Shown: positions 8,676 to 60,404, counted from the stretch's first letter. The stretch: 64,000 nt of DNA from Candidatus Magasanikbacteria bacterium GW2011_GWA2_56_11 (GCA_001004885.1 LCRX01000004.1:11178-75177), one strand, 5' to 3'. The notes: generated from the sequence alone by a model not told the origin. Numbers and translations: made by a program.

Positions 8676-8681
8676 ACAACG

Positions 8682-8836
8682 AACTGGTAGCGAGTTATCA
8701 GCAATTCTATCCTAAGTCGAGCCGAAACAGAGACTGATTTTTACGGCACCAATGTCTGAGCCTGTAAGAGCGAGTTTTGGTGCCGTGAAAATCAGTCTCT
8801 GTTTGAGGCGAAAAGGGAGAAACTCGCTGTGAGTTC
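8682..8836 (-). repeat. Copy B (reverse orientation) of the MITE/REP-like element, between livJ and livH
   Basis: The reverse complement aligns full-length to copies C and E. It is co-oriented with the minus-strand liv operon. Confidence 0.85.
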
Positions 8837-8844
8837 AACCTGAT

Positions 8845-17008: not shown

Positions 17009-17067
17009 GTGGCCGCCGCTCCCTTAGACGGTGAGTCTTCGGGAGCGGCGTTGTTTGATGCCTACGA

Positions 17068-17409
17068 TCAGGCGGCGCGTGGCATCACTTCCTCGGAGCA
17101 TCGCCCGCAGCGCCAGACCGGCCCGCTGCGGATGGCCGTGGTGGGCCCGCATTTCGGGCAGTGCCCCTGGCCGCTGCCGCTCTCGTTGTCGATGACGGGC
17201 GGCTGTACCTGCCGCGTGAGGGGCGGGGCGCAGTTGAGGCAGACGCCGTTGGCCATGGTCGTCTGCCGCCGGCACAGGTCGCACTCCTGCATCTCGATGG
17301 TGACGTTTAAGCCTTCATGGCTCATCACCTTAAAGCCGGCGAGGGCAAGCTCGAGGCAGAACTGCTCCACTATGTGGGCGACTTCCGGGTTTAGGACAGC
17401 ATCGGACAT
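17068..17409 (-). CDS. Hypothetical zinc-ribbon protein (CDLC...CLNC...CPKC...CGRC)
   Basis: Strong AAGGAGG RBS (rc of 17411-17423). Start at Met8 of the track ORF. Confidence 0.5.
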   Translation of the reverse strand: MSDAVLNPEVAHIVEQFCLELALAGFKVMSHEGLNVTIEMQECDLCRRQTTMANGVCLNCAPPLTRQVQPPVIDNESGSGQGHCPKCGPTTAIRSGPVWRCGRCSEEVMPRAA

Positions 17410-17590
17410 CGGGACCTCCTTGTTACGCACACACTAGCGGTTTTGGGAGTTTTTTGCAAGTGGAGGCGGCCAGTTAAGGTGTATGGGTCTACGTAGAAAT
17501 CAGCCGGGCGCAGAAGCTACCTTATTTTTGGCCGTCGAAAGTGGTACAGTACCAGAGGGCAAAATGTTTGCCCTCTAATTGTACTTTAAT

Positions 17591-18619: not shown

Positions 18620-19384
18620 ATGCTCACCCCGCACGAGGCCACCAACCGGCGTATCTTCAGCCGCGTAGCGAAGCGCTATGATTCCCCGCTTGCCCGCCGG
18701 GTATATTTCGGGCGGCTCTACCGCCATCTTTTGAAAATACTTGAACGCGAGGCCGGCACTACTCTCGGCGGCGCACGCGTACTGGATGTTGCCTGCGGCA
18801 CTGGCGAGATAATAAACAACCTGGCCCGGCGCTTTTCGGGTTCTGCCTACACCGGCCTCGATATTACCCCGGCGATGCTCGAGCGGGCAAAAAAGAAAAC
18901 CGCCGGCCTGGCCAACGTATCTTTTGTCGAGGCAACCGTGGATGAATTGCCGTTTTTGGACGGTGCGTTTGACTTGGTAATCTGTTCTGAAGCCTTTCAT
19001 CACTTCTCCGATCCAGGCCGGGCTCTAAGCGAAATGCGCCGCGTACTCTCGCTCCGGGGCAGACTGTTATTGGTTGATCCGGCGTTCAACCGGCCGTGGA
19101 TAAGGCGCCTGGCCAATAAATTTTTACCGCGCCTGGAGCACGCCCACGCCGTCTACAGTACAGGGGAATTAGCCGGGTTGATGGAAAATTACGGATTTAC
19201 GGTCGAGTTTCGTTCGACATACGCCCTGAATAGCTTTATACTGGGGGCCAAAAAGAACTCACAGCGAGTTTCCCCCCTTTCGCCTCAAACAGAGACTGAT
19301 TTTCACGGCCCCAAAACTCGCTCTTACAGGCTCAGACATTGGTGCCGTAAAAATCAGTCTCTGTTTCGGCTCGACTTAGGATAG
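18620..19384 (+). CDS. Class I SAM-dependent methyltransferase (Methyltransf_11); last ~40 codons are read through repeat copy C
   Basis: SAM motif VLDVACGTGEII plus LPFLDGAFDLVICSEAFHHF. The C-terminal NSQRVSPLSPQTETDFHGPKTRSYRLRHWCRKNQ is encoded by the repeat. Confidence 0.75.
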   Translation: MLTPHEATNRRIFSRVAKRYDSPLARRVYFGRLYRHLLKILEREAGTTLGGARVLDVACGTGEIINNLARRFSGSAYTGLDITPAMLERAKKKTAGLANVSFVEATVDELPFLDGAFDLVICSEAFHHFSDPGRALSEMRRVLSLRGRLLLVDPAFNRPWIRRLANKFLPRLEHAHAVYSTGELAGLMENYGFTVEFRSTYALNSFILGAKKNSQRVSPLSPQTETDFHGPKTRSYRLRHWCRKNQSLFRLDLG

Positions 19385-19410
19385 AATTGCTAGTAACTCA
19401 CTACCAGTTC
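19255..19410 (+). repeat. Copy C of the MITE/REP-like element
   Basis: Full-length alignment to copies D, E and B. Confidence 0.85.
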
Positions 19411-19419
19411 AAAGTCTAT

Positions 19420-22418: not shown

Positions 22419-24560
22419 ATGCGCGATCTGCTTAAAATCCACTTTGGCTACGATGAGTTCCGTCCTTTGCAAGAGGATGTCATCAAGACCGTCCTCGGAC
22501 GCCGGGACGCGCTGGTGCTTATGCCCACGGGTGGCGGTAAATCACTTTGTTACCAGCTGCCCGCGCTACAGTTTTCTGGCATAACTCTAGTGGTCTCACC
22601 GCTCATCGCGCTCATGAAGGACCAGGTTGACGCGCTTCAGGCCAACGGCATCGCCGCGGCCTGCCTCACCAGCACGCTCGCGCCCGAAGAATTACGTGTT
22701 CGGGAACGACAGATAGCCGCCGGGGAGATAAAAATCGTGTATCTCGCCCCGGAGCGGCTGGCCATGCCAGGTTTCCGGCAATTTGTCCGCACGCTGCCCG
22801 TGGATTTTATTGCCGTGGATGAGGCGCACTGCATCTCGGAGTGGGGGCATGACTTCCGCCCGGAGTACCGCAAACTTCAGGGTCTCCGGGCGGATTTCCC
22901 CCGCTCTCCGGTCGTCGCGCTCACCGCGACCGCGACGAAGCAAGTGAGGGAGGATATAGTCCGGGAGCTGAGATTAAAGGAGCCGCGGATTTTTGTCTCC
23001 AGCTTCAACCGGCCGAACCTGACCTACCGGGTGGAACCAAAAGACAAAACTTTCGATCGGTTAGCGCGGATTTTGGATCAATATCGCGGCGAGTCGGCTC
23101 TGGTTTATTGCTTTTCGCGCCGCGACACGGAAACACTCTCCCGCGATTTGACCGCTGCCGGGTTCTCGGCCCTGCCGTATCACGCCGGTTTGGACCCGAA
23201 GACGCGCGGGGAGACGCAGGAAAAGTTTATCCGCGACGAAATTCCGCTAGTCGTCGCGACGATTGCCTTTGGCATGGGCATTGATAAACCAAACGTCCGG
23301 CTGGTGGTGCATTATCATCTGCCCAAAAGCATTGAAGGGTATTACCAGGAGACCGGCCGCGCCGGCCGCGACGGCTTGCCGAGCGAGTGCGTGCTGTTCT
23401 ACTCGCCGGCGGATTGCGAAAAGCACCGCTATTTTATCGCCGAGATCGGCGACCCGGCGGAGCGCGCGCGCTCCGAGAGAAAACTGGCGGAGATGGTGCG
23501 GTTTGCCGAGCTGACCGCATGTCGCCGCGCGTTTTTACTCCGGTATTTCGGCGAGACGGACGCTGCAAATTCCTGCGGCGCTTGCGACCGGTGTCTGACG
23601 CCGCGGGAAACATTTGACGGCACATTGGCCACGCAGAAGATACTGTCGGCTGTTATCCGAACCGGCGAACATTATGGCGCGAGTTATATTACGGACGTTT
23701 TGCGCGGTTCCCGAAGCGCGGATATTTCCGCCCGCGGGCATGACCGGCTGGGGGTTTTTGGTTTGTTTTCGGACACGAGCAAGCCGGAGTTGCGCGATTA
23801 CATGGCGCAGCTCACAGCTGCCGGCTATCTGGGCAAAGAGGCCGGCAGGTACCCGACGCTTTTTGTTACTGCCGCCGGCAAACGCTGGCTCAGGGATCGC
23901 GGAACAGTCAGCTTGACGCGCCCTTGCGAACCGGACGAGCCTGCCGCCGGCAGGCACAGCGACTTGCCCTACGAGGTCGAACTTTTTGCTTCTCTTAGGG
24001 ACTTACGTAAACATTGCGCCCAGAAAGAAAACGTGCCGCCGTTTGTAATTTTTGGCGATCGCACTCTAATCGAGATGGCTTACTACTTGCCGGACTCGCT
24101 CTCTGGCCTGCGGGCGATTACCGGCGTGGGCGAGGCAAAGCTTGAACGCTATGGGCAGATATTTTTGCGCGAGATAACTGCCTATGCCCAGGCGCGCGCC
24201 CTTGGCGCCCGGGAACGGCCGCGGCGCCACCGCCCCGAGACTGTCCGGGCCACTTCGACGTATCTGGCCACCAGGGACCTGGTCGCCCGGCAGCTGCCGC
24301 TCTCTGCCATTGCCTCAGCCAGGGAATTGGCCCCGGAAACTATCGTGGGCCATTTGGAAAAATTGTTGGCCTCCGGCGAGGCGCTCGATATAGAATACCT
24401 CAAGCCGCCGCCGGAGAGGTTTGCCGCCATCGAGGCGGCTTTCCGCCGGAGCGGGCAGCCCTGGCTAACGCCGGTGCGGCGTCTTTTGCCGGAGGAATAC
24501 AGCTACCTTGAGCTGCGATTGGCTCGGCTGTGGCTGCGTGATATACTCGATTCCGAATGA
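22419..24560 (+). CDS. recQ: ATP-dependent DNA helicase RecQ (helicase + RQC + HRDC)
   Basis: LVLMPTGGGKSLCYQLPAL, DEAHCISEWGHDFRPEY, the Zn-binding CxxC...CxxC and a C-terminal HRDC domain. Confidence 0.9.
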   Translation: MRDLLKIHFGYDEFRPLQEDVIKTVLGRRDALVLMPTGGGKSLCYQLPALQFSGITLVVSPLIALMKDQVDALQANGIAAACLTSTLAPEELRVRERQIAAGEIKIVYLAPERLAMPGFRQFVRTLPVDFIAVDEAHCISEWGHDFRPEYRKLQGLRADFPRSPVVALTATATKQVREDIVRELRLKEPRIFVSSFNRPNLTYRVEPKDKTFDRLARILDQYRGESALVYCFSRRDTETLSRDLTAAGFSALPYHAGLDPKTRGETQEKFIRDEIPLVVATIAFGMGIDKPNVRLVVHYHLPKSIEGYYQETGRAGRDGLPSECVLFYSPADCEKHRYFIAEIGDPAERARSERKLAEMVRFAELTACRRAFLLRYFGETDAANSCGACDRCLTPRETFDGTLATQKILSAVIRTGEHYGASYITDVLRGSRSADISARGHDRLGVFGLFSDTSKPELRDYMAQLTAAGYLGKEAGRYPTLFVTAAGKRWLRDRGTVSLTRPCEPDEPAAGRHSDLPYEVELFASLRDLRKHCAQKENVPPFVIFGDRTLIEMAYYLPDSLSGLRAITGVGEAKLERYGQIFLREITAYAQARALGARERPRRHRPETVRATSTYLATRDLVARQLPLSAIASARELAPETIVGHLEKLLASGEALDIEYLKPPPERFAAIEAAFRRSGQPWLTPVRRLLPEEYSYLELRLARLWLRDILDSE

Positions 24561-24714
24561 ACTCACAGCGAGTTTCTCTCCTTTCGCCTCAAACATAGAC
24601 CGATTTTCACGGCACCAAGACTCGCTCTTGTGGGCTCAGACATCGGGGCCGCGAAAATCAGTCTATGTTTCGGCTCAACTTAGGGTAGAATTGCTGATAA
24701 CTCACTATCAGTTC
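24559..24714 (+). repeat. Copy D of the MITE/REP-like element (starts at the recQ stop codon)
   Basis: Full-length alignment to the other copies. Confidence 0.85.
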
Positions 24715-24868
24715 AAAGTTAGCGCGGATTTAGAGTCCACCCGCGTTGGCCAGCTCTTTTTGGTCTTGTTTGATCGGTGTTCTTGTCGGAATAGGCAGGA
24801 TTTTGGCTTCGGGCGGCAAGCCGTTTATCGTTCGCAGTTGGTTCGTCTTACATCTTTGAATTCATTTT

Positions 24869-32463: not shown

Positions 32464-32524
32464 AAACCGGGATAAGAGCCGGGCTTTTTCCCGCCGGTGT
32501 TCTCTGGTATAATACTTTCAGCTA

Positions 32525-32680
32525 GAACTCACAGCGAGTTTCCCCCTTTTCGCCTCAAACATAGACTGATTTTCACGGCGCCAAAACTCGCTCTTGTGGG
32601 CTCAGACATTGGTGCCGCGAAAATCAGTCTCTGTTTCGGCTCGACTTAGGAGAGAATTGCTAACAACTCACTATCAGTTC
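32525..32680 (+). repeat. Copy E of the MITE/REP-like element (reference copy)
   Basis: GAACTCACAGCGAGTTT...CGCCTCAAACATAGACTGATTTTCACGGCGCCAA...TTGGTGCCGCGAAAATCAGTCTCTGTTTCGG...AACTCACTATCAGTTC. Confidence 0.85.
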
Positions 32681-38778: not shown

Positions 38779-38806
38779 GTGATACCTGGCCGGGGCCAGG
38801 TATCAC
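38779..38806 (+). promoter_or_regulatory. Second perfect 11-bp hairpin GTGATACCTGG-ccgggg-CCAGGTATCAC upstream of the next pilin-type gene
   Basis: Read from the sequence, followed by a T-rich region. Confidence 0.45.
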
Positions 38807-38829
38807 GTGTTAAATTCTTTTACTTTTCT

Positions 38830-39267
38830 ATGACTTCGCGCCGCCTTTTCCAGGCCCTGTCCCTGGGTATTATGGCCTGGGCCTCTTTGGTCCAGGTTAC
38901 GTTCGCCGATCCGCCGGCACCCCAGCCGCCATGCGGCATTGACCCCAACGACCCGCTGGCGCTCGACTGCGCCGCGGCCAGCGGACTGGTAGCCACCGAT
39001 CCGCGCCTCATAGCCGCGCGGATTATCAACGTAATTCTGGGCGTTCTAGGCACGGTGGCGACCCTGCTTATCTTCTACGCCGGCTTTCTCTGGATGACGG
39101 CCGCGGGCAACGAAGACCAGGTAACCAAGGCCAAAAGCATTATGTTCAGCGCAGTGGTGGGGTTGGTAATTATTTTGAGCGCCTTCGGCATCTCGACTTT
39201 CATCGTGCGCTACATTTACGAGGCCTCGTCCGGCGCGGGCTACGGTTCGGGCCCGGTCATTCCCTAA
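38830..39267 (+). CDS. TrbC/VirB2-like pilin-type protein
   Basis: Signal peptide MTSRRLFQALSLGIMAWASLVQVTFA and DPRLIAARIINVILGVLGTVATLLIFYAGFLWMTAAGNEDQVTKAKSIMFSAVVGLVIILSAF. The track ORF start at 38779 lies in the hairpin. Confidence 0.7.
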   Translation: MTSRRLFQALSLGIMAWASLVQVTFADPPAPQPPCGIDPNDPLALDCAAASGLVATDPRLIAARIINVILGVLGTVATLLIFYAGFLWMTAAGNEDQVTKAKSIMFSAVVGLVIILSAFGISTFIVRYIYEASSGAGYGSGPVIP

Positions 39268-39293: not shown

Positions 39294-40118
39294 ATGGCAA
39301 ACTTCCGCTCAAAAAGAATCCTGATTGCCGGCTTTGTCGCGGCCGCGGCCTGCTTCTTTTCTTTTTCCGCGGCCCTGGCCCAGTATGGCCTGGCCGAGAC
39401 CGCGAAAAGCGCGGGAATTCCCACCAACAAGAGCATTCCGGTGATACTGGGCGACGCCATCGGCACCGGACTCTCCATGATTTCCGTGGTTTTCTTCGCG
39501 CTCATGCTCTACGCCGGCATCCGCTGGATGATCGCGCGCGGCAATGATGAAGACGCCAAAAAGGCGCAGGATACCATTATTGCCGCGGTTATTGGCATTG
39601 TGATAGTGATTGCCGCCTACGCGCTGACCAATTTTGTTTTTACGAGCGTGGGAATTAGCACCGCCGGCGGGGCGGCGGCGCCCAAGGCTCCGGGCGGGGG
39701 GGCAGCACCGGCAGTACCGGTTGTGCCGGGCGGGGGAGGCGCGCCTGGAGGTTGGCCCGATCCGGTACCCGAACCAGAAATCCCGCCAGGCCCAGGACAA
39801 CCCCCAGGTCCGGGTGCTCCGCAACCACCTGGTGGTTCTAGCGGGGCCTGTGTGCCGAAAAACAATGATGCTTCTTGTCAGAGTCAATTTGAACAACAAT
39901 GGGCAGGTTACAAGGGGGCAGGTGGAACCGCTACGGATGACAACGCCAAGAAAGTTGCCTGTGTCGGAGATGACACAAACGGCTGCACATGGGACATCGC
40001 AGCACAAAAGTGTGTATTGTCCGGGGCTGCCGAACAATGTACAGCTCTTAATGAAGAGCCGGACACCGAGGAAGCGAAGGCGTCTTGTGGAGCAAGTTTT
40101 TACTGTAAGTGGCAGTAA
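39294..40118 (+). CDS. TrbC/VirB2-like pilin-type protein with Gly/Pro-rich linker and C-terminal 8-Cys domain
   Basis: Pilin-type domain LMLYAGIRWMIARGNDEDAKKAQDTIIAAVIGIVIVIAAYAL, then PGGGGAPGGWPDPVPEPEIPPGPGQPPGPGAPQPPG, then a Cys-rich tail. Confidence 0.7.
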   Translation: MANFRSKRILIAGFVAAAACFFSFSAALAQYGLAETAKSAGIPTNKSIPVILGDAIGTGLSMISVVFFALMLYAGIRWMIARGNDEDAKKAQDTIIAAVIGIVIVIAAYALTNFVFTSVGISTAGGAAAPKAPGGGAAPAVPVVPGGGGAPGGWPDPVPEPEIPPGPGQPPGPGAPQPPGGSSGACVPKNNDASCQSQFEQQWAGYKGAGGTATDDNAKKVACVGDDTNGCTWDIAAQKCVLSGAAEQCTALNEEPDTEEAKASCGASFYCKWQ

Positions 40119-40160: not shown

Positions 40161-40844
40161 ATGAGCATAAAACCTTTTACACTTAGTTTGCTGGTGCTGG
40201 CCCTAACTCTGGCGCCGGCGTATACGGCGCAGGCCAAGAAAACCCTGGGCGATACGCCGACTGCCCTCAACAGCGCGGTGGCCCCGACCGGCATTGAAAA
40301 AACCGATGTATTGTCCATTAGCGGCAAAGTAGTGAAAGGGGCGCTCGGGATGGTGGGGCTGGTTTTCTTCGTTCTCATGGTCTATGCCGGCATCCGCTGG
40401 ATGACGGCCCGGGGCGACGAGGACGCGGCCAGCAAGTCGCGCGACACGATGATAGCGGCAGTAATCGGACTGATAATAATCGTGGCCTCGTATGCAATTA
40501 CCAGTTTTGTTACCGACCGTATTGTACTGATGCAAACGGCAGTGGATGTTGACGGCTCCGGCCTGAGCGGCGACATGCTGGGAAACGAACCACTGGCCTG
40601 CTGCATCGTGCCGGCCACCGCTAACCCGAACAGTCCGTATACGGCGAGCCTGCGCACCGAGGCCGAGTGCGCCAGTTTGTCCGAGGGCGGGGTGCAGGGA
40701 GCGGACTGGGAAATTTATCATATTCCCAACAATAATTTTACCGTTTGCGAAGCGATCAATAATTGCTGGAATAATCCCAACGGCAGCCAGAGCACTTTTT
40801 TTGCTGAGTGCCTATCCAAGGCAGGCGTAAAGAGCGAACCTTAA
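40161..40844 (+). CDS. TrbC/VirB2-like pilin-type protein with C-terminal Cys-rich domain
   Basis: LVFFVLMVYAGIRWMTARGDEDAASKSRDTMIAAVIGLIIIVASYAI followed by a tail containing 7 Cys. Confidence 0.7.
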   Translation: MSIKPFTLSLLVLALTLAPAYTAQAKKTLGDTPTALNSAVAPTGIEKTDVLSISGKVVKGALGMVGLVFFVLMVYAGIRWMTARGDEDAASKSRDTMIAAVIGLIIIVASYAITSFVTDRIVLMQTAVDVDGSGLSGDMLGNEPLACCIVPATANPNSPYTASLRTEAECASLSEGGVQGADWEIYHIPNNNFTVCEAINNCWNNPNGSQSTFFAECLSKAGVKSEP

Positions 40845-40848
40845 ACCT

Positions 40849-41214
40849 ATGAAGTACTTATATTCTTTTCTACTGGCTGTTCTCGGCCTGGCACCGGGCA
40901 TATTATCGGCCGCCGGTATCCAGAGTTCCGGGCCTAATTTGTCCACGGTAGCCAAAAAAGCCGAGTTTTCGGAAAACGTACTCCTGCCGGAAATAGTCGG
41001 CACGGTTATTAACGCCGTGCTTAGTTTGGTCGGGCTAATTTTTTTGGTCCTCATGGTCTATGCCGGCATACTGTGGATGACGGCTAGGGGCGACGAAAGC
41101 AAGGTGGAGAAAGCGAAAACCATTATCGAGGCTTCGCTTATCGGGCTGTTCATTACGGTCAGCGCCTATGCCATCACCGTATTTCTTACCGGCCGCTTTG
41201 AAACCGCACCCTAA
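40849..41214 (+). CDS. TrbC/VirB2-like pilin-type protein (minimal, 121 aa)
   Basis: Signal peptide plus LIFLVLMVYAGILWMTARGDESKVEKAKTIIEASLIGLFITVSAYAI. Confidence 0.7.
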   Translation: MKYLYSFLLAVLGLAPGILSAAGIQSSGPNLSTVAKKAEFSENVLLPEIVGTVINAVLSLVGLIFLVLMVYAGILWMTARGDESKVEKAKTIIEASLIGLFITVSAYAITVFLTGRFETAP

Positions 41215-41224
41215 TTTATTTTTT

Positions 41225-41677
41225 ATGACCGCTCTCGCCCAAAAGTTTGCCCCCTTCCTGCTGATATTCATTCTCGGACATTTTTTGGCGGCCCCGGCCC
41301 TGGCCCTGAACCTGGGCGGTGGGGACACCGGTAGCACCTGGCAGGCCGCGGACAAGGCCGGGTACGACAAAGCCGGAGAGACGACACTGGCCGAGACGGC
41401 GGGTAAGATAATAAAAATTGTGCTTTCGGTGGTGGGCGTAATATTTACCGCCCTCATGGTTTATGCCGGCATACTGTGGATGACGGCTAGGGGCGACGAA
41501 AGCAAGGTGGAGAAAGCGAAAGATATTATTGAGGCCTCGATAATCGGGCTCGTGATTGCTCTGGCTTCGTACGGACTGACGAGTTTTGTGGTGAATAACG
41601 TGCTCGATCAGACGGCGCCGTCGCCGGCCGCGCCGGAGCCGGTTCCCGAATCTGGTGCAGGGGGTGCTGGCGAGTAG
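41225..41677 (+). CDS. TrbC/VirB2-like pilin-type protein with short Ala/Pro-rich tail
   Basis: VIFTALMVYAGILWMTARGDESKVEKAKDIIEASIIGLVIALASYGL. The track ORF starts at 41168; Met20 is used. Confidence 0.7.
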   Translation: MTALAQKFAPFLLIFILGHFLAAPALALNLGGGDTGSTWQAADKAGYDKAGETTLAETAGKIIKIVLSVVGVIFTALMVYAGILWMTARGDESKVEKAKDIIEASIIGLVIALASYGLTSFVVNNVLDQTAPSPAAPEPVPESGAGGAGE

Positions 41678-52291: not shown

Positions 52292-52588
52292 ATGCCGCAG
52301 AAAGCACGAGAATTGAGGATGGCCGACCGGCTTTTGTTGGCCGCGTTAGTTTTCCTTGTGTCCGGCGTTGCCTTCGAGCTGCTCGCACGACAGCTCGACC
52401 CTGGCGCCTTTTGGTCTGACGCCTTCTGGCCCATGAACGGCGATCCGAGGGAGCTCTACCCGATGGTCGCGGAGCTGGTCTTCATGGGGACCAGCATCGG
52501 GGCCACTGCCTTGGCGATCGTCTACAGCGCACTGTACTGGTTCAGGCGTCGGCAGCGTCGGCATCATCTCAAGCTCGTCCAGAGCTGA
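52292..52588 (+). CDS. Small membrane protein encoded in GC-rich DNA (high GC3)
   Basis: AGGAGG SD lies 9 nt upstream, with two TM helices. Confidence 0.45.
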   Translation: MPQKARELRMADRLLLAALVFLVSGVAFELLARQLDPGAFWSDAFWPMNGDPRELYPMVAELVFMGTSIGATALAIVYSALYWFRRRQRRHHLKLVQS

Positions 52589-52745
52589 CGGCGCGCGGCG
52601 GGGTACGGAGGGACCGCGCCGCATAGCATCACCCCTCCATCTTAGATTCCAATGGATTAGAGTTTGAGCGAGGTAAAACGAGTGATGTTTAGTTTGAAAT
52701 AAAATAAGAGCTAAAAAAGGCTCTTATTTTAGACAAAATCCATTT

Positions 52746-52821
52746 TGGGGTGGCTAATGGGAATCGAACCCATGCTAAAGGTTCCACAAACCTCTGTGCT
52801 AACCATTACACCATAGCCACC
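52746..52821 (-). tRNA. tRNA-His (anticodon GTG) with genomically encoded G-1 and CCA
   Basis: The rc folds as G-1, acceptor GTGGCTA/TAGCCAC, D-arm GTGT..GCAC, anticodon stem GAGGT / loop TTGTGGA / ACCTT, T-arm ATGGG-TTCGATT-CCCAT, discriminator C, then CCA. Confidence 0.85.
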
Positions 52822-53138
52822 CCACAAGGGACTTTGTTTTTAGATTGTAAAATCAACGATTTTTATCCGCCGCCAAACCGCGACAATGCGTGGTGGTAAG
52901 TCTGGGGCCATCTGCAATCAAACCCGTACTGCGAGTAACGTAAACTCGCGTGATAACCATTTTAGTAAATGGCGCCTTTATTGCGTTACGCAGTATAAAA
53001 AAAAAAGTCCTTTTTGTCAATAACAGACGGTCCCATGTCAGCGGTCCCGTTAGCTCGTCAGTCGTTTCCTTCTCAAGAGAAGAAAGCAGCAGTCCGAGGG
53101 TGCAGTCGAGGGTAGAGCTGCACCGGAAAAGAGCGTGG

Positions 53139-54482
53139 CTAGGCAGCCTTGGCCGGCTTGTCAGTAACGGCCCGGAGCTTGGGCTTCGGCTTGGCGTGCC
53201 AGATGCTCGAGGCGAACAGAAGGCCGAGGCCCGCGGCTGGCAAGAGGACCAGGGGCCAGTAGAACCAGTTGGCCGGATCCTTGGCGGCCTCCCCGGTGGG
53301 GACGATCCACCCGATCACGAGCGACTGCAACCCCGTGCCGAGGTAGACCATGCCGTCCACGATGCCGACCGCGGCGCCGGTGTTCTTGGCGCCGGCGAAG
53401 TCGGCCGTGGCCGTGCCCGAGAAGATCCCGTGCACGCCGATCACGCTCATCGAGATGGCCATGACGGCGATGCCGGCGAACCACCAGTTTAGGTCCAGGC
53501 TCAGGCCCATGACGGCGGTGGCCAAGAGCATGAGGCAGTAGAGAATGGTGGCCATGGGCGCGCGGCGCGACTGGAAGAAGCGGTCCGACATCCAGCCGGT
53601 GAAGATGCCGCCCAGGAGTCCGGCGATGAGGAGGGCGAGACCCCAGTTGTCGCTCACCCAGAACTCCTTCTTGAAGCCGACCTCCTTGGCAAACATCGGG
53701 TACCAGTGCATGACGCCGTTGCGGAGGATGCCGCTCATGAGCTCGACGACGCAGACGATCCGGAGCACTGGGTGCCTGATGATTTTACCGAAGATCTGCC
53801 GTGTCGTCTCTTTGTGGTCGCTTACTCCCAGGTGGTCCTCGCCGGTGTCAAAGTCGCGGAAGCCGGCCTCGCCTGGCGTGTTGCGCAGCCAAGCGAACAT
53901 GAGGAGCCAGAAGACGCCAAGCAGGATCGAGGGGATGAAGAAGATCATCCAGTCCTCGTTCCAGCCGCTTTGGCCGAGCCCGAAAGCCGTGCCGAAAGCG
54001 CTGGCCCAGAAGCCGAGGTCGGCCTTGGGCGTGGCCCGTGATGCTTCGACGATGGCGAAGCCCCAGTCGAAGGCGAAGTAGACGCCGAGAGCGATGAGGA
54101 CGCCGAAGATCGTCGAGAAGGTGCCGCGCTCGCTGACGTGGAACCAGGGCGCCTTGGTGGTGACGATCGCCACCGCGCCGAAGCTCTGGAAGTACATGTT
54201 GACGGCGTAGAGCACGAGGAACGTGCTGAACACGGACACGTTCCATTGCCAGTAGTTTATCCCGTAGAGGACGAGGCCCATGAGGAGATTGGCGCCGATG
54301 GCGCCAGCGACGCCGATGAGCATCGTGCGCCGCCCGCCCCAGCGGTCCGTGAGCGGGCCGTTGAGCAGGAAGGAGAGCCCGTAGACCCAGGCGCCGACAC
54401 CGAAGATCGTGCCGAACTGCGCCTTGGTCATGAGGCTGTCGCCGAGGGCGCCCTGAGCGACGGTGAGGTTGTAGCGCCCCAT
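53139..54482 (-). CDS. MFS organophosphate:phosphate antiporter (GlpT/UhpT family), very high GC3 (putatively horizontally acquired)
   Basis: Clear similarity to E. coli GlpT across the protein (GWMSDRFFQSRRAP vs GWMSDKVFRGNRGA; HWYPMFAKEVGFKK vs DWSPTYLKEVKH), with the MFS motif GPLTDRWGGRR. Confidence 0.75.
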   Translation of the reverse strand: MGRYNLTVAQGALGDSLMTKAQFGTIFGVGAWVYGLSFLLNGPLTDRWGGRRTMLIGVAGAIGANLLMGLVLYGINYWQWNVSVFSTFLVLYAVNMYFQSFGAVAIVTTKAPWFHVSERGTFSTIFGVLIALGVYFAFDWGFAIVEASRATPKADLGFWASAFGTAFGLGQSGWNEDWMIFFIPSILLGVFWLLMFAWLRNTPGEAGFRDFDTGEDHLGVSDHKETTRQIFGKIIRHPVLRIVCVVELMSGILRNGVMHWYPMFAKEVGFKKEFWVSDNWGLALLIAGLLGGIFTGWMSDRFFQSRRAPMATILYCLMLLATAVMGLSLDLNWWFAGIAVMAISMSVIGVHGIFSGTATADFAGAKNTGAAVGIVDGMVYLGTGLQSLVIGWIVPTGEAAKDPANWFYWPLVLLPAAGLGLLFASSIWHAKPKPKLRAVTDKPAKAA

Positions 54483-54651
54483 GTAGAGGAGCGCGTAAGC
54501 CAGACCCGAGCGGCAGCCAGTTTATGGCGCGCCGTTGACGGTAGGCCAAGGAATGCTTGATTTCTCCCATTCGGTCCTCCACCCGGCGTTGATGCCGGTC
54601 CGCGCTAACTTAACAGCTAAAATGGCGAATTGTCAATGGGCCGATCGCGGT

Positions 54652-54686
54652 TGAAATAAAAACCCCCGGCAGATACCTGCCGGGGG
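54652..54686 (-). terminator. Rho-independent terminator (CCCCCGGCAG-gtat-CTGCCGGGGG + TTTTTATTT on minus strand)
   Basis: 10-bp GC stem with a T-run downstream of the SPFH gene. Confidence 0.65.
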
Positions 54687-54711
54687 TAAGGCGTTTTGGG
54701 TTGGCGGCAGA

Positions 54712-55446
54712 CTACTTCTTCATGCCTTCAAAAGCCCGCAACACCTCAAGCGGTATCGCGAAGATAACCGTATTTGACTGGTCAGAGCTCAGGTCGCTAA
54801 TCGTGCTCAAAGTGCGCAAGTGGAGCGCGCCCGGAGAGGAGGAGAGCATGTCGGCCGCTTTGGCGATATTCTCGGCCGCGATGAGCTCGCCGCTCGCCTT
54901 GATGATCACCGACCGTTTTTCGCGCTCGGCCTCGGCTTGTTTGGCGATCACGCGTTGCATGTCGTCCGGGAGGGTAACGTCTTTGAGTTCGACGCTTTCC
55001 ACCTTGATGCCCCATGGATCGGTAGCCTTGTCGACGATGGTCTTGATTTTTTCCGCCGCCGCCTCGCGGTTGGCGAGGAGTTCATCGAGTTCGAGTTCGC
55101 CGACGACGTTGCGCATGGTGGTCTGGGCCAGCTGGCTGACCGCGTACCAGAAGTTTTCTACTTCGAGTATAGCCTTGTCCGCGTCCGAAACGCGGTAGTA
55201 GATGACAGCGTTGATCTTGGCCGAGATGTTGTCCTTGGTAATGGCCTCTTGGAACGGCACGTCCACGGCCTTGGTGCGCATGTCGACCCGCGTCATGCTT
55301 TGGAATACCGGAACAACGATGCGCCAGCCCGGATCGACTACTCGGACGAACTTGCCCAACTGAAATTTGACCCCGCGCTGGTACTGGTTGACCTGGCGGA
55401 TGCTCACGAGGAGCACGATCACTATGAAGGCGACGATATAGCCCAT
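54712..55446 (-). CDS. SPFH/Band 7 (stomatin/prohibitin-like) membrane protein
   Basis: N-terminal TM segment followed by an SPFH domain (YQRGVKFQLGKFVRVVDPGWRIVVP...). Confidence 0.8.
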   Translation of the reverse strand: MGYIVAFIVIVLLVSIRQVNQYQRGVKFQLGKFVRVVDPGWRIVVPVFQSMTRVDMRTKAVDVPFQEAITKDNISAKINAVIYYRVSDADKAILEVENFWYAVSQLAQTTMRNVVGELELDELLANREAAAEKIKTIVDKATDPWGIKVESVELKDVTLPDDMQRVIAKQAEAEREKRSVIIKASGELIAAENIAKAADMLSSSPGALHLRTLSTISDLSSDQSNTVIFAIPLEVLRAFEGMKK

Positions 55447-55462: not shown

Positions 55463-56200
55463 TTACTTAGACAAAATTTGCAAGGAGCGGTCCCAATTTA
55501 TTTCGTAATATCCGGCTTCGCTTTTCGTCGATCCGTCGGACGTTAGCAAGTACTGGCCGACAGACACGAACACAAACCGATCAGGATTATTTTCGTTCAT
55601 GAGGAAATAGCTGATGCCGTTGGACTCGCTGTACGGCGGCGAACACTTCTCGCTATTGGCCCAGCCAGGTTCTTCTGGGTCGGCCGGGGGCGGATAGGAG
55701 ATGGCGGCGGCAGTGTAGCCCGGCCGCTGATCCAGCTTTATACTATCTGACTGTCTCACAAAGCAATCCTTGGGGTCAAGTCCTTTTAGGAACCGCGCGG
55801 CCACGGCGGCGGCGAGGGTCATTTGGGGATCTTTATCGAAAATCTCAACCCACTGGCCGTCGGCCGGAGCTTGGCTGGCCAGGTGGACATATATCTTGTT
55901 GCCGGTTTCAGTTAGTTTGACCTCTTCCGACGAGTCTGAGATCGGATTGTAGGTGAAGCCGACGCCCAGAGGGCCGGAGACGTACACTCTGGTTCCCGGC
56001 TCTTTGCGACCAAGATCAAAGATAGCGGAATAGTCCGGCGCGTCCGCGATCGGTTCGGTTTTTTCTGTCGGGGCACTCGCTTCGGGGGCGGGGGCGTTGG
56101 TTTCCCCGGCGTCAGATTTTTTAAATCCGGTCCGGTAACCGATGACTCCGGCAAGAACAACGAGAACCGCCGCTGCCGCCAAAGCTGTTTTGTGGTTCAT
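55463..56200 (-). CDS. Membrane-anchored hypothetical protein
   Basis: N-terminal TM segment and a Pro/Ala-rich linker. No recognisable domain. Confidence 0.45.
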   Translation of the reverse strand: MNHKTALAAAAVLVVLAGVIGYRTGFKKSDAGETNAPAPEASAPTEKTEPIADAPDYSAIFDLGRKEPGTRVYVSGPLGVGFTYNPISDSSEEVKLTETGNKIYVHLASQAPADGQWVEIFDKDPQMTLAAAVAARFLKGLDPKDCFVRQSDSIKLDQRPGYTAAAISYPPPADPEEPGWANSEKCSPPYSESNGISYFLMNENNPDRFVFVSVGQYLLTSDGSTKSEAGYYEINWDRSLQILSK

Positions 56201-56227
56201 ACGCTGGTTGTTAGCTCGGTGAATACG

Positions 56228-56299
56228 TGTCCCGACCAGGAGTCGAACCTGGGTTTAGAGCTTAGAAGGCTCCCGTTCTATCCATTGAACTATCGGGAC
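56228..56299 (-). tRNA. tRNA-Arg (anticodon TCT)
   Basis: The rc folds with acceptor GTCCCGA/TCGGGAC, D-arm GTTC..GAAC, anticodon stem GGAGC / loop CTTCTAA / GCTCT, T-arm CCAGG-TTCGACT-CCTGG, discriminator A. Confidence 0.85.
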
Positions 56300-56355: not shown

Positions 56356-57351
56356 TCAATCTGAACCCCGCTTTTTGCCGTGGAATTTTTTGTGTATGTT
56401 GCGCAGCTCCCGGTCGGTAATGTGGGTATAAATCTGAGTAGTGGTGATGGAGGTGTGGCCGAGCATAGCCTGCACGCTGCGGATGTCGGCGCCGTTTTGC
56501 AATAGATCCGTGGCGTAGGAGTGGCGCATTGTGTGCGGGGTAACGGGCTTGGTAATGCCGGCCGCCTTGGCGTACCGTTGCACCAGGCGCTGGACCGAGC
56601 GGGGAGTAAGGGGAACCTCATCGGCCTCCAGGCCTTTTTTGGTTGCCTTGACGCGCTTGCCGGTGCGCTTGTCGTGCGAGACGAACAGAAAGGGATTGAG
56701 GTCCGGCCGGATATCCAGATATTTTTTCAGCCAGTACTTGGCCTGGGCGGACAAAAATACCACGCGCGTTTTGCGCCCCTTTCCGGTAACCGTAAATTCA
56801 TCCTTTTTTAGGTTGACATCGCTTTTTTTGAGTCCGACCAGCTCGGATACGCGCAGGCCGGTGGAAAAAAGCAGCTCGAGGGCGGCCTTGTCGCGGTATT
56901 TGATCAGGTTGCCGCCGGTATTATTTCCGGCCGCGCCCTGGCGGATAGCCGCCATTTGCGCGAGCGGCGCCTCCAGTAGGCGCGAGAGGTCGCTGCCGTC
57001 AAGAAAGGATACCTGCCGGTCCGGCATTTTCATGAGTTCGATTTTTTCCGGCGTCAGCGAGGCGATGTCGCGTTTGGCGAGGTACTTTAAAAATGACCTC
57101 AGAGCGATAAGGTGATAATTTTGCGTATTCTTTTTGAGCGGGTCGCCGTGCACGTCAATGAGGCGGTTGAGCCAGAGCCGGTACTCGCGCACCTTGTCGG
57201 TTGTTACGGCCTCCGGTTTTTTGTCGCCGAACCATTCGATGAAACGTCCCAGATAGAAGTCGTAATTGCGCACGGTCTGAAGGCTGCGGTTTTTTTCGAT
57301 TTCCAAATATTCCAGAAATTCGCGCAGGTAACGCGAGAGCAGGTAAGACAT
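56356..57351 (-). CDS. xerC: Tyrosine site-specific recombinase XerC/XerD family
   Basis: N-terminal SAM-like domain (LREFLEYLEIEKNRSLQTVRNYDFYLGRF) and a catalytic C-terminus HTMRHSYATDLLQNGADIRSVQAMLGHTSITTTQIYTH. Confidence 0.8.
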   Translation of the reverse strand: MSYLLSRYLREFLEYLEIEKNRSLQTVRNYDFYLGRFIEWFGDKKPEAVTTDKVREYRLWLNRLIDVHGDPLKKNTQNYHLIALRSFLKYLAKRDIASLTPEKIELMKMPDRQVSFLDGSDLSRLLEAPLAQMAAIRQGAAGNNTGGNLIKYRDKAALELLFSTGLRVSELVGLKKSDVNLKKDEFTVTGKGRKTRVVFLSAQAKYWLKKYLDIRPDLNPFLFVSHDKRTGKRVKATKKGLEADEVPLTPRSVQRLVQRYAKAAGITKPVTPHTMRHSYATDLLQNGADIRSVQAMLGHTSITTTQIYTHITDRELRNIHKKFHGKKRGSD

Positions 57352-59317: not shown

Positions 59318-59349
59318 AAGAACACAAAAAAATTGAAATTAATACAATT

Positions 59350-59447
59350 GAACTCACAGTGAGTTCCCCCCTTTCGCCTCAAACATAGACTGGTTTTCAC
59401 GGCCCCAAAACTCGCTCTTACAGGCTCAGACATTGGTGCCGTAAAAA
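59350..59447 (+). repeat. Copy F of the MITE/REP-like element, 3'-truncated
   Basis: The first ~98 nt align to the other copies. Homology is lost after GTAAAAAT. Confidence 0.75.
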
Positions 59448-60404
59448 TGGGGTGATCTTGGGGTGCCGGGCTATCATTCGGCGCACGTCTTTTTCGGTGA
59501 GGAGGCCGGTTTGCGCCCCCCACTGTTGGATAACGCCGCCGGCATTGGCTGTGCCCCACTGCATGGCTTCGGGGAGGGAAGACCCAGACATGTAGGCGCG
59601 CAGAAAACCGCTGGCGTAGGCGTCGCCGGCACCGGTTTTGGAAACCACCTTAACAGGGTAGCTGGGCAGGAAATAAAGGTCGTCTCCTTGGGAGGCGAAT
59701 GAGCCGCGGACGCTGTCGGTAACGACAACAGTTTTGGGTCCGAGACGGCGCACCGCGGCGCACAGGGCGCGCATAGTCCTTTTTTCGCCGGCGAGACGCT
59801 CCGCTTCTTGTTTGTTAACAATCAGAAGATCGGTCAGAGGCAGAATTTTGGCGAATTCCTCCCGGCCTTTTTTGAGCTGGTATGATCCCGGATTCACGGC
59901 CAGCTTGAGCGTGCGGTGCCGCTTTAGATACGCGGCGAGCCGTGCCTGGAGGCGTTCGAAAGATTCGCCGAGCGATGTGTAGTACAGCCACCGCGCTGCC
60001 GGCAGAGCCGGCAGGCGATAACGGCGGGCGGCATGATAGGCCAGAATGGTACGTTCTCCGCGGTAGCTCAGGACAATCGAGTAACGCGTGGTCGCGCGCG
60101 GCTGCAAAGAGACGAGGCCGGTGTCAACCCCGGCCTCTTGCAGAGCGTCGTGTATGGCGTAGCCGTTCAAGTCGTCGCCAAGCTGGGTTACAATCGCGGC
60201 GGCCAGGCCCAGCCGGCTCGCTCCGGCCGCCACATTGGCCGCGTTGCCGCCGACCGATTGCGCGGTTTCTTTGATGGGGATTTTTTCCGCGTAGTCCAAA
60301 CAGAGCTGGCAGTGTTCGCGGCGCACGTCGCACTGGAGCGTGGCGTCGTCCACGATGAGGAAAGTGTCCAAGGTGGCGTCGCCAATGGTGATAAGGTCGA
60401 ACAT
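59418..60404 (-). CDS. PfkB-family carbohydrate kinase (ribokinase-like)
   Basis: C-terminal TGAGDAYASGFL motif and N-terminal GG motif SVGGNAANVA. The last ~10 codons overlap repeat copy F. Confidence 0.75.
   Translation of the reverse strand: MFDLITIGDATLDTFLIVDDATLQCDVRREHCQLCLDYAEKIPIKETAQSVGGNAANVAAGASRLGLAAAIVTQLGDDLNGYAIHDALQEAGVDTGLVSLQPRATTRYSIVLSYRGERTILAYHAARRYRLPALPAARWLYYTSLGESFERLQARLAAYLKRHRTLKLAVNPGSYQLKKGREEFAKILPLTDLLIVNKQEAERLAGEKRTMRALCAAVRRLGPKTVVVTDSVRGSFASQGDDLYFLPSYPVKVVSKTGAGDAYASGFLRAYMSGSSLPEAMQWGTANAGGVIQQWGAQTGLLTEKDVRRMIARHPKITPFLRHQCLSL

Follow-up and report, generated by a model that had tools for sequence, protein, structure and literature searches.

A 64,000-nucleotide stretch of the genome of Candidatus Magasanikbacteria bacterium GW2011_GWA2_56_11 (GCA_001004885.1, LCRX01000004.1:11178-75177; hereafter the window, with positions counted from its first letter) contains a compositionally foreign gene for a transporter of the major facilitator superfamily (MFS), which resembles the organophosphate:phosphate antiporters (OPA) and lies between the gene of an SPFH/Band_7 protein and a tRNA-His gene. 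Based on its composition, its neighbourhood in related genomes and its phylogeny, we conclude that the gene was probably brought in as a single-gene cassette, inserted once into a conserved string of core genes and inherited vertically thereafter. Its horizontal origin is strongly supported, since related loci retain the empty site, the gene is patchily distributed within the candidate phyla radiation (CPR), and its tree, in conflict with taxonomy, is nested among non-CPR bacteria, the features by which a xenologue is recognized. In the window genome, the reading frame of the gene is interrupted by one extra base.

Foreign composition and the insertion point

The open reading frame (ORF) called on the window spans 53139-54482 on the minus strand (447 amino acids), and an exact look-up identified its GenBank record as KKW42737.1, "Glycerol-3-phosphate transporter". 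Its GC content is 0.650 and its GC content at third codon positions (GC3) is 0.922, compared to a mean of 0.672 (standard deviation, SD, 0.048; maximum 0.788) for the 50 other ORFs of at least 150 amino acids within the window, the GC content of which is 56.7% as a whole. The genes for SSB, a secretion ATPase and an ABC transporter all have GC3 values of at most 0.79. The per-gene GC3 comparison suggested by an earlier note, which was made from the sequence alone and had described the third positions of this gene as almost entirely G or C, thus marks the transporter as an outlier at +5.2 SD within the window. That note had also given 66-68% GC for the transporter and for a small ORF at 52292-52588; these values are slightly too high, GC being 65.0 and 61.3%, respectively, and for the small ORF the description is overstated. 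The ORF it had taken as the gene is present but incomplete, as the true gene extends from 53139 to 54570. The DNA around tRNA-His was correctly seen as AT-rich (GC 0.38-0.49 per 100 bp), and AT-rich non-coding DNA flanking the transporter argues against a regional mutational bias. Elsewhere in the window, a 142-amino-acid ORF (17009-17437, plus strand) has a GC3 of 0.825 yet a GC content higher at second than at first codon positions; it is without Pfam match and probably represents a spurious or wrong-frame ORF, not a second foreign gene.

Related loci were collected by a metagenome scan with the neighbouring Band_7 protein, which yielded 80 loci at 70-90% identity. The transporter was sought in these 80 loci and is present in none; 41 of them display an empty site, with tRNA-His following 61-357 bp after Band_7, and the complete string Xer - tRNA-Arg(TCT) - Band_7 - tRNA-His(GTG) is found in 24, all lacking the transporter. 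At the empty sites, a Band_7 terminator hairpin equivalent to that of the window is followed by a conserved TTGACA-N17-TATACT promoter and then by tRNA-His; the motif (TATACT or TATAGT) was located between terminator and tRNA-His in the empty-site loci L091, L098, L102 and L109.

The gene occurs at this same spot in three lineages of Magasanikbacteria only. The first comprises the window and L001, an independent ENA MEGAHIT assembly of 65 kb which is collinear with the window and 99.7% identical over about 20 kb. The second is L002/L008 (Ca. Magasanikbacteria GCA_016193335.1; local GC 46%, transporter 77% identical at the amino acid level) and the third L074 (Magasanikiibacteriota nzgw355; local GC 42%, 68% identical). 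In the window, the same terminator and promoter as in the empty sites are about 1.6 kb apart, and the promoter motif is also present in L002 and L074, where the cassette likewise separates the two elements. Because terminator and promoter adjoin in the empty sites and are split in the carriers, the insertion point is pinned down; with dozens of relatives retaining the empty site, its position is uncertain by no more than a few tens of bases.

At its 5′ end, the cassette has a perfect -35 hexamer, which was read directly; the consensus promoter scan called no promoter in 54571-54660, the -10 element being weak. At its 3′ end, a non-coding element of about 70 nt is common to all three carriers (L002 11455-11530; L074 9445-9520) despite saturated four-fold degenerate sites in the gene. 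A role as a terminator is conceivable, as is one in RNA stability or regulation; with three independent sequences, covariation is uninformative. Rfam searches of 52.1-54.8 kb at E≤1 and of the whole window at the gathering threshold returned two tRNAs only, leaving this element and a dispersed repeat of about 157 bp (see below) unmatched.

In this metagenome-assembled genome of about 11x coverage, GC content changes abruptly where the single gene begins and ends, as would also be expected of a chimeric contig with a mis-assembled contaminant fragment. However, the same junctions, a few single-nucleotide differences apart, are found in the independent assembly L001, the same protein is encoded on a JGI contig, and an orthologous arrangement is found in another species (two NCBI genomes, four Logan assemblies) as well as in a third one. 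Since the junctions are thus seen in assemblies from ENA, JGI, NCBI (two) and Logan (four), a chimera can be set aside with near certainty.

The earlier note had interpreted the locus as a foreign island adjacent to tRNA-His, with a XerC-type recombinase nearby and an actinobacterial-type donor, conceivably the host; in its full form, this proposal would be a recent island integrated at tRNA-His by that recombinase. In its favor, the GC3-rich gene neighbors a tRNA gene, and a tyrosine recombinase is encoded at a distance of about 1.8 kb; the tRNA-His locus is rearranged, containing a decayed and a replacement copy; and the same gap harbors other cargo in L127 and L128. However, the cassette is located 5′ of tRNA-His, upstream of its promoter, and tRNA-derived direct repeats are lacking. 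A search for direct and inverted repeats as attachment (att) sites in 51.9-55.6 kb, a search for copies of the tRNA-His 3′ end with up to three mismatches across the whole window, and blastn-short of tRNA-His and its pseudogene against 49-56.5 kb returned chance matches of 8-11 nt only. A recombinase gene does stand next to tRNA-Arg, as had been stated, but its association with an island does not hold: it is a resident core gene and no island integrase, because it is conserved beside tRNA-Arg in the 24 complete strings without transporter. The protein scores 235 bits for XerD and 229 bits for XerC, both below cut-off, and 226.5 bits for the XerA-type model NF040815 (cut-off 220). Furthermore, the lineages that share the insertion have diverged to saturation at synonymous sites, and no actinobacterial sequence was found among the best 80 genome loci or the named top matches. 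Thus, of the hallmarks of a tRNA-targeted island, atypical composition and presence or absence among relatives were observed, while insertion at the tRNA 3′ end with att sites and an island-borne integrase were not. We consider a recent island very improbable; of that proposal, the foreign origin stands, and recency, island and donor do not.

Donor, age and number of insertions

A scan of 185,579 species genomes detected a homologue in at least 582, the best 80 loci of which were examined. These comprise two Magasanikbacteria, one Uhrbacteria (65% identity), one other Patescibacteria and many non-CPR genomes, namely Elusimicrobiota (61-64%), Deltaproteobacteria, Myxococcota, Planctomycetota, Acidobacteriota, Latescibacterota and Bdellovibrionia (about 48%). 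Outside Magasanikbacteria, the closest relatives (Uhrbacteria, Elusimicrobiota, Deltaproteobacteria, Myxococcota) reach at most 65% identity. The Magasanikbacteria clade and Uhrbacteria-like sequences group together in 37 of 60 bootstraps, and this group is nested in a mixed non-CPR radiation. The protein search and phylogeny that had been proposed as a check thus place the transporter among non-CPR bacteria and reveal no actinobacterial relative; among the best 80 of the at least 582 genome loci, as among the named top protein matches, there is none.

GC3 was compared across loci using coordinates defined by tblastn and called genes, as a first ORF-based comparison had been noisy in high-GC genomes due to wrong-strand ORFs. 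In non-CPR genomes, GC3 of the gene tracks the genome, from 0.28 in an Elusimicrobium of 37% GC to 0.95 in an Elusimicrobia genome of 70% GC. In the CPR copies, it exceeds the flanking genes in every case, clearly so in four CPR genomes with resident GC3 below 0.6. A transfer into the CPR from a GC-rich type of genome is supported. The donor itself cannot be named, because the best identity outside Magasanikbacteria is only about 65%, and nothing points to Actinobacteria. In one Ca. Uhrbacteria genome (GCA_016187515.1, L088 5912-11476), the homologue is part of a block of about 5.5 kb with GC3 of 0.71-0.82 versus 0.43-0.57 around it. This block also encodes a PNP_UDP_1 nucleoside phosphorylase and a PGM_PMM phosphomutase and may be a co-transferred module for the handling of sugar or pentose phosphates.

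The three carrier proteins are 68-77% identical to each other and monophyletic in 99 of 100 neighbor-joining bootstraps among 180 homologues, and their pairwise distances parallel those of Band_7. Four-fold degenerate sites are at or near saturation, with identities of 0.36-0.49 compared to 0.34-0.45 in composition-matched permutations. Together with the conserved protein sequence, this indicates long vertical descent under purifying selection, with dN/dS well below 1. As lineages sharing the same position have saturated synonymous sites, the insertion is old and the transfer ancient, not recent.

Several results weigh against a single ancestral insertion. The host-marker tree (Band_7 and Xer; 35 loci, 545 columns) is star-like and does not unite the carriers to the exclusion of empty-site lineages, so that the distribution could also be explained by a single gain with subsequent losses or by lateral spread within Magasanikbacteria. 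Neither integrase, transposase, repeat nor att site was found in or beside the cassette, and the mechanism of transfer is not visible. In L074, GC3 of the transporter is 0.78 compared to a resident value of 0.32, despite saturated synonymous sites; a rough two-state calculation suggests that neutral amelioration would have brought it to about 0.55 or lower. Three independent acquisitions at one insertion-prone spot, or lateral spread, would account for unameliorated GC3 (0.78-0.91 versus resident values of 0.32-0.67). They would also agree with the marker tree, with the other cargo in the gap of L127 and L128, and with the absence of the transporter from L091, which is closest to the window and L002 in Band_7 and Xer. 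However, the three proteins are each other's closest relatives in the bootstraps given above, they share the 3′ non-coding element and the same boundaries, and their relative distances mirror those of Band_7. The flanks, at about 73% nucleotide identity, would seem too divergent for homologous replacement. We therefore judge repeated acquisition or lateral spread unlikely and prefer a single gain with later losses.

Under a single gain, the persistence of high GC3 calls for an explanation. All seven CPR copies have GC3 of 0.77-0.91, resident genes ranging from 0.32 to 0.69. The gene might be native, its GC3 being due to gene-specific codon selection, e.g., for high expression; values of about 0.8 in every CPR copy whatever the host GC, and neighboring non-coding DNA that is not GC-rich, would be in line with this. 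In contrast, 41 sites are empty, no copy exists in the 80 related loci, the CPR copies are nested in a large non-CPR family, and other genes of the window, including those for SSB, the secretion ATPase and the ABC transporter, do not exceed 0.79. In addition, an Akashi-type test comparing conserved and variable residues in four CPR copies detected no excess of G/C-ending codons at conserved positions (odds ratios 0.96-2.0, p≥0.11). A native gene is scarcely credible; codon selection acting after the transfer is possible. An overlapping gene on the opposite strand was rejected as the reason for the high GC3, since the antisense ORFs of the window are interrupted and lack conservation.

Since all CPR copies are near 0.8, the four-fold sites of the three Magasanikbacteria copies have turned over almost completely and the adjacent non-coding DNA is AT-rich, the foreign codon composition could be actively maintained instead of merely not yet erased, which we regard as doubtful. 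If true, there would be a gene-specific fixation bias towards G/C-ending codons in an acquired membrane-protein gene of ultra-small bacteria, for which synonymous-site selection (translation, membrane insertion) or mRNA properties could be responsible. It would be an example of a transfer resisting amelioration, and foreign GC3 kept over saturating divergence, if real, bears on the trust placed in compositional "amelioration clocks".

The preferred history, a single insertion, may be outlined as follows. In the core string, a short spacer separates the Band_7 terminator from the tRNA-His promoter, and one insertion at this place would have introduced a cassette of about 1.6 kb (window approx. 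53050-54660), consisting of its own -35 hexamer, a Shine-Dalgarno sequence, the OPA-like MFS gene and the conserved 3′ hairpin element. The recipient would have been the ancestor of a small Candidatus Magasanikbacteria subclade and the donor a GC-rich bacterium outside this clade, possibly another CPR lineage which was itself supplied by non-CPR groundwater bacteria. Thereafter, the cassette would have been inherited vertically under purifying selection, and in the window genome a one-base insertion would finally have broken the frame and removed half of the first transmembrane helix (TM1).

The window allele and surrounding features

Pairwise alignments revealed one extra base in the window at 54505-54507, the plus strand reading CCC compared to CC in L001. 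L001 encodes a protein of 476 amino acids, starting at the equivalent of window position 54570; P0001 encodes the same intact protein, and the JGI contig carries this form as well. Due to the extra base, the frame is shifted and the first 29 residues are lost, nine of which are invariant in the family (R13, R14, N17, W18, G22, A24, Y25, A26, Y29). In the AlphaFold model, helix 8-45 corresponds to TM1, the first half of which is made up of lost residues.

The extra base of the window allele marks either a gene that has only recently become a pseudogene or an error in the consensus, the coverage of the assembly being about 11x. That the gene has recently been inactivated in this strain is suggested by the extra base in the deposited contig, where GenBank annotates the 447-amino-acid remnant alone, and by three of the five substitutions versus L001 being clustered non-synonymous changes. 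In the L074 assembly, this gene likewise contains a frameshift (-1), independent of that in the window, and selection for loss-of-function alleles of glpT is known from other bacteria (PMC11850910, PMC3417576). On the other hand, two further assemblies of the same species are intact, the remainder of the gene does not show decay, and both frameshifted assemblies are of low coverage (window approx. 11x according to the genome name; L074 3.4x according to the contig title). A consensus error is at least as likely as a real frameshift, and true inactivation comes close to an even prospect.

Four of the five transporter substitutions compared to L001 fall within 20 bp (54248-54267) and alter three residues (I/V, N/S, Q/E) in the loop after TM3; a small recombined patch or variability of this loop might be the cause. 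The orthologue in L074 (approx. 8456, nzgw355) is a second frameshifted copy among the three carrier lineages, ATCTTCGG having become ATCTCGG; four stops in its plain translation were traced to this single -1 frameshift, which was corrected before tree building.

On the tRNA-His side, the locus was rearranged a second time. Directly downstream of the conserved promoter lies a tRNA-His pseudogene called by neither ARAGORN nor Rfam. In the D-arm, the stem of the anticodon arm and the 5′ T-arm, it is identical or nearly so to the tRNA-His of L074 and L109, whereas its anticodon loop is changed from GTGGC to ACGTT and its 3′ end is degraded. The functional tRNA-His follows about 80 bp downstream, with an ORFan just past its 3′ end. 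Decayed copy, replacement tRNA and ORFan point to a rearrangement in this lineage only, an event separate from the transporter insertion. The ORFan is mildly GC-rich (GC 0.613; GC3 0.778, i.e., +2.2 SD for 98 codons), has no Pfam or NCBIfam family, matches only its own cluster in databases (≥90% identity) and is absent from L002 and L074. The former assignment of this small ORF and the transporter to one island is thus untenable, as they lie on either side of tRNA-His and the ORF is species-specific.

Between tRNA-Arg and Band_7, the window has a gene for a 245-amino-acid protein without Pfam or NCBIfam match and without tblastn match in the 80 Band_7 loci; three other genes occupy this place in L002. 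In L127 (5615-6895, minus strand) and L128 (854-2242, minus strand), the gap between Band_7 and tRNA-His contains a different gene, encoding a secreted protein of 426-462 amino acids which is rich in Glu, Arg and Asp, predicted to form a coiled coil and unrelated to the transporter. The spacer therefore tolerates insertions and recurs as an insertion site.

Apart from this locus, the window contains six copies of the dispersed repeat of about 157 bp, which are 74-96% identical, mostly intergenic and with an internal inverted repeat; the repeat may be a structured RNA or resemble a miniature inverted-repeat transposable element. Its last copy is truncated compared to L001, which has 103 bp more. 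Close to a T4SS-pilin-like ORF (38779-39267), several small genes in tandem are connected by paralogous segments of 72-87% identity (39487-39638 vs. 40360-40511, 40351-40420 vs. 41027-41096, 41027-41147 vs. 41430-41550), which suggests a tandemly duplicated family of small genes. The coordinates of the features are compiled in Table 1.

Table 1. Features of the transporter locus and dispersed repeats, in window positions.
Feature	Position	Strand	Description
98-aa ORFan KKW42736.1	52292..52588	+	annotated as hypothetical; two predicted hydrophobic helices; own AGGAGG site; downstream GC hairpin
Functional tRNA-His(GTG)	52746..52820	-	other sequence type (like L102, L002); replaces the decayed copy
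Decayed tRNA-His pseudogene	52900..52978	-	directly downstream of the conserved promoter
Sigma-70-type promoter TTGACA-17-TATACT	52992..53020	-	ancestral tRNA-His promoter; right insertion boundary; 11/12 consensus matches
Conserved non-coding 3′ element	53053..53123	-	GTGCAG..CTGCAC hairpin, CCYTCGGAC, AT-rich hairpin TTTCTTC..GAAGGAAA, GACG
OPA-like MFS transporter, full gene	53139..54570	-	476 aa without the extra base at 54505-54507; foreign GC3-rich cassette
Annotated ORF KKW42737.1	53139..54482	-	starts at internal Met30; residues 1-29 gone (N-terminal part of TM1)
Frameshift site	54505..54507	-	coding strand GGG, compared to GG in the 99.7%-identical relative
5′ region of the cassette	54571..54660	-	TTGACA -35 (54636-54631), weak -10; Shine-Dalgarno GGAGGA (54580-54575), 4 nt before the ATG at 54570
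Band_7 intrinsic terminator	54662..54687	-	left insertion boundary; 11-bp stem with 9 GC pairs, then T run
SPFH/Band_7 gene	54712..55446	-	resident core gene flanking the insertion; PF01145, E=3e-41
245-aa hypothetical gene	55463..56200	-	between tRNA-Arg and Band_7; lineage-specific addition to the core string
tRNA-Arg(TCT)	56227..56299	-	member of the conserved core string
Xer-type tyrosine recombinase	56356..57351	-	Phage_integrase, E=4e-43
Repeat copies (approx. 157 bp)	1994-2159, 8681-8838, 19254-19412, 24558-24716, 32524-32680, 59348-59448		no Rfam family

Protein family, predicted function and comparison with known systems

The protein belongs to the MFS, matching Pfam MFS_1 with E=1.6e-22 and 80.4 bits (cut-off 33.4). 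A search of PDB sequences returned GlpT (1pw4) as the sole match (E=2.6e-17), aligned over residues 10-155 and 196-423 at about 21% identity; the alignment to E. coli GlpT reported before is thus confirmed, in two stretches. The AlphaFold model of the intact allele (pLDDT 81, pTM 0.84) has helices matching MFS structures, the closest folds being GlpT 1pw4, SLC37A4 (G6PT) and SLC37A2, followed by other anion transporters of the MFS (DgoT, OxlT). Roles have been described for several GlpT residues, i.e., R45, R269, Y38, Y42, Y76, K46, K80, H165, Y270 and D274 (PMC4598623). R32 and R283 (numbering of the 476-amino-acid form) align to R45 in TM1 and R269 in TM7 of GlpT and are invariant in 14 diverse homologues; equivalents of Y38, Y42 and Y76 are likewise invariant in the transporter subfamily. 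We conclude by analogy that the protein is probably an OPA-like exchanger, GlpT-like in outline and not a GlpT orthologue. It would most likely work by alternating access, taking up an anionic phosphate ester in exchange for what is probably inorganic phosphate.

Other observations weigh against antiport with phosphate, the exchange against which is proposed by analogy with GlpT only. K46, K80, Y270 and D274 of GlpT are replaced by Y33, F67, N284 and H288, and H165 probably by I159, a less certain position taken from an ungapped extension of the alignment. The OPA family-level model TIGR00881 (2A0104) scores 120.7 bits, below its cut-off of 407.75, and the window allele may be non-functional. 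The curated GlpT, UhpC and PgtP models all remain far below cut-off (TIGR00712 glpT, 82.6 vs. 632.55; NF008433, 76.6 vs. 748; UhpC, 64 vs. 564), the matches to PgtP and UhpC being weak. The earlier designation as "GlpT/UhpT-type" consequently applies at the level of family and fold but fails at the level of orthology, and the name "glycerol-3-phosphate transporter" is unwarranted.

In other phyla, a HAD-type phosphatase is encoded directly upstream of the transporter in 14 of 72 loci and adjacent to it in 15, and a PLD-like protein near it in six, some from Elusimicrobiota. Examples are the HAD-IIIB-like phosphatase at L083 6894-7658 (and 14 other non-CPR loci) and the PLD-like protein at L029 10614-12089 (and five others). 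These neighbors weakly support an organophosphate substrate; the phosphate esters handled by the subfamily may derive from the head groups of lipids or from nucleotides. Scavenging of phosphorylated metabolites, as proposed in the earlier note, would be plausible; if the transporter imports such compounds, it would offer some Magasanikbacteria one route to bypass missing biosynthesis. A literature search found no paper linking Magasanikbacteria or Patescibacteria with this transporter, and to our knowledge no member of this OPA-like subfamily has been characterized. For annotation, the label "glycerol-3-phosphate transporter" is unearned for a large subfamily found in at least 582 species genomes, including predatory Bdellovibrionia.

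With E. coli GlpT (TC 2.A.1.4.3, PDB 1pw4), the protein shares the 12-helix MFS architecture and both phosphate-binding arginines. It differs in its low sequence identity, in the replaced accessory residues and in an additional extended loop (roughly 176-208, about 30 residues) that includes a short helix. SLC37A4 and SLC37A2 match the fold nearly as well as GlpT (TM-score 0.6-0.8). Compared to the OPA members UhpT/UhpC, PgtP and SLC37, it falls into a large clade of its own with Elusimicrobiota, Deltaproteobacteria, Myxococcota, Bdellovibrionia and others. Chlamydia (UhpC/Hpt) and Listeria (Hpt), as metabolically dependent bacteria, obtain phosphorylated intermediates of another cell through an OPA transporter. 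Those transporters are close relatives of UhpT with demonstrated substrates in an intracellular setting; for the present protein, possibly inactive in the window allele, the parallel is conceptual only.

Like tRNA-linked genomic islands, the cassette combines foreign composition beside a tRNA gene, presence or absence among relatives and cargo varying by lineage. It differs from them in being a single gene on the 5′ (promoter) side of the tRNA, with neither island integrase nor att duplication. It is a solid but ordinary case of horizontal gene transfer that leaves current concepts unchanged and provides a worked example of gene gain in a streamlined CPR genome. In a survey of aquifer CPR, in which this transporter, Magasanikbacteria and tRNA sites are not mentioned, Gios et al. 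(2025; PMC12455944) described individually transferred genes as well as islands, mostly exchanged between CPR and with diverse groundwater donors. The present case fits this description, and L074 (nzgw355) bears the "nzgw" isolate prefix of genomes named in that survey.

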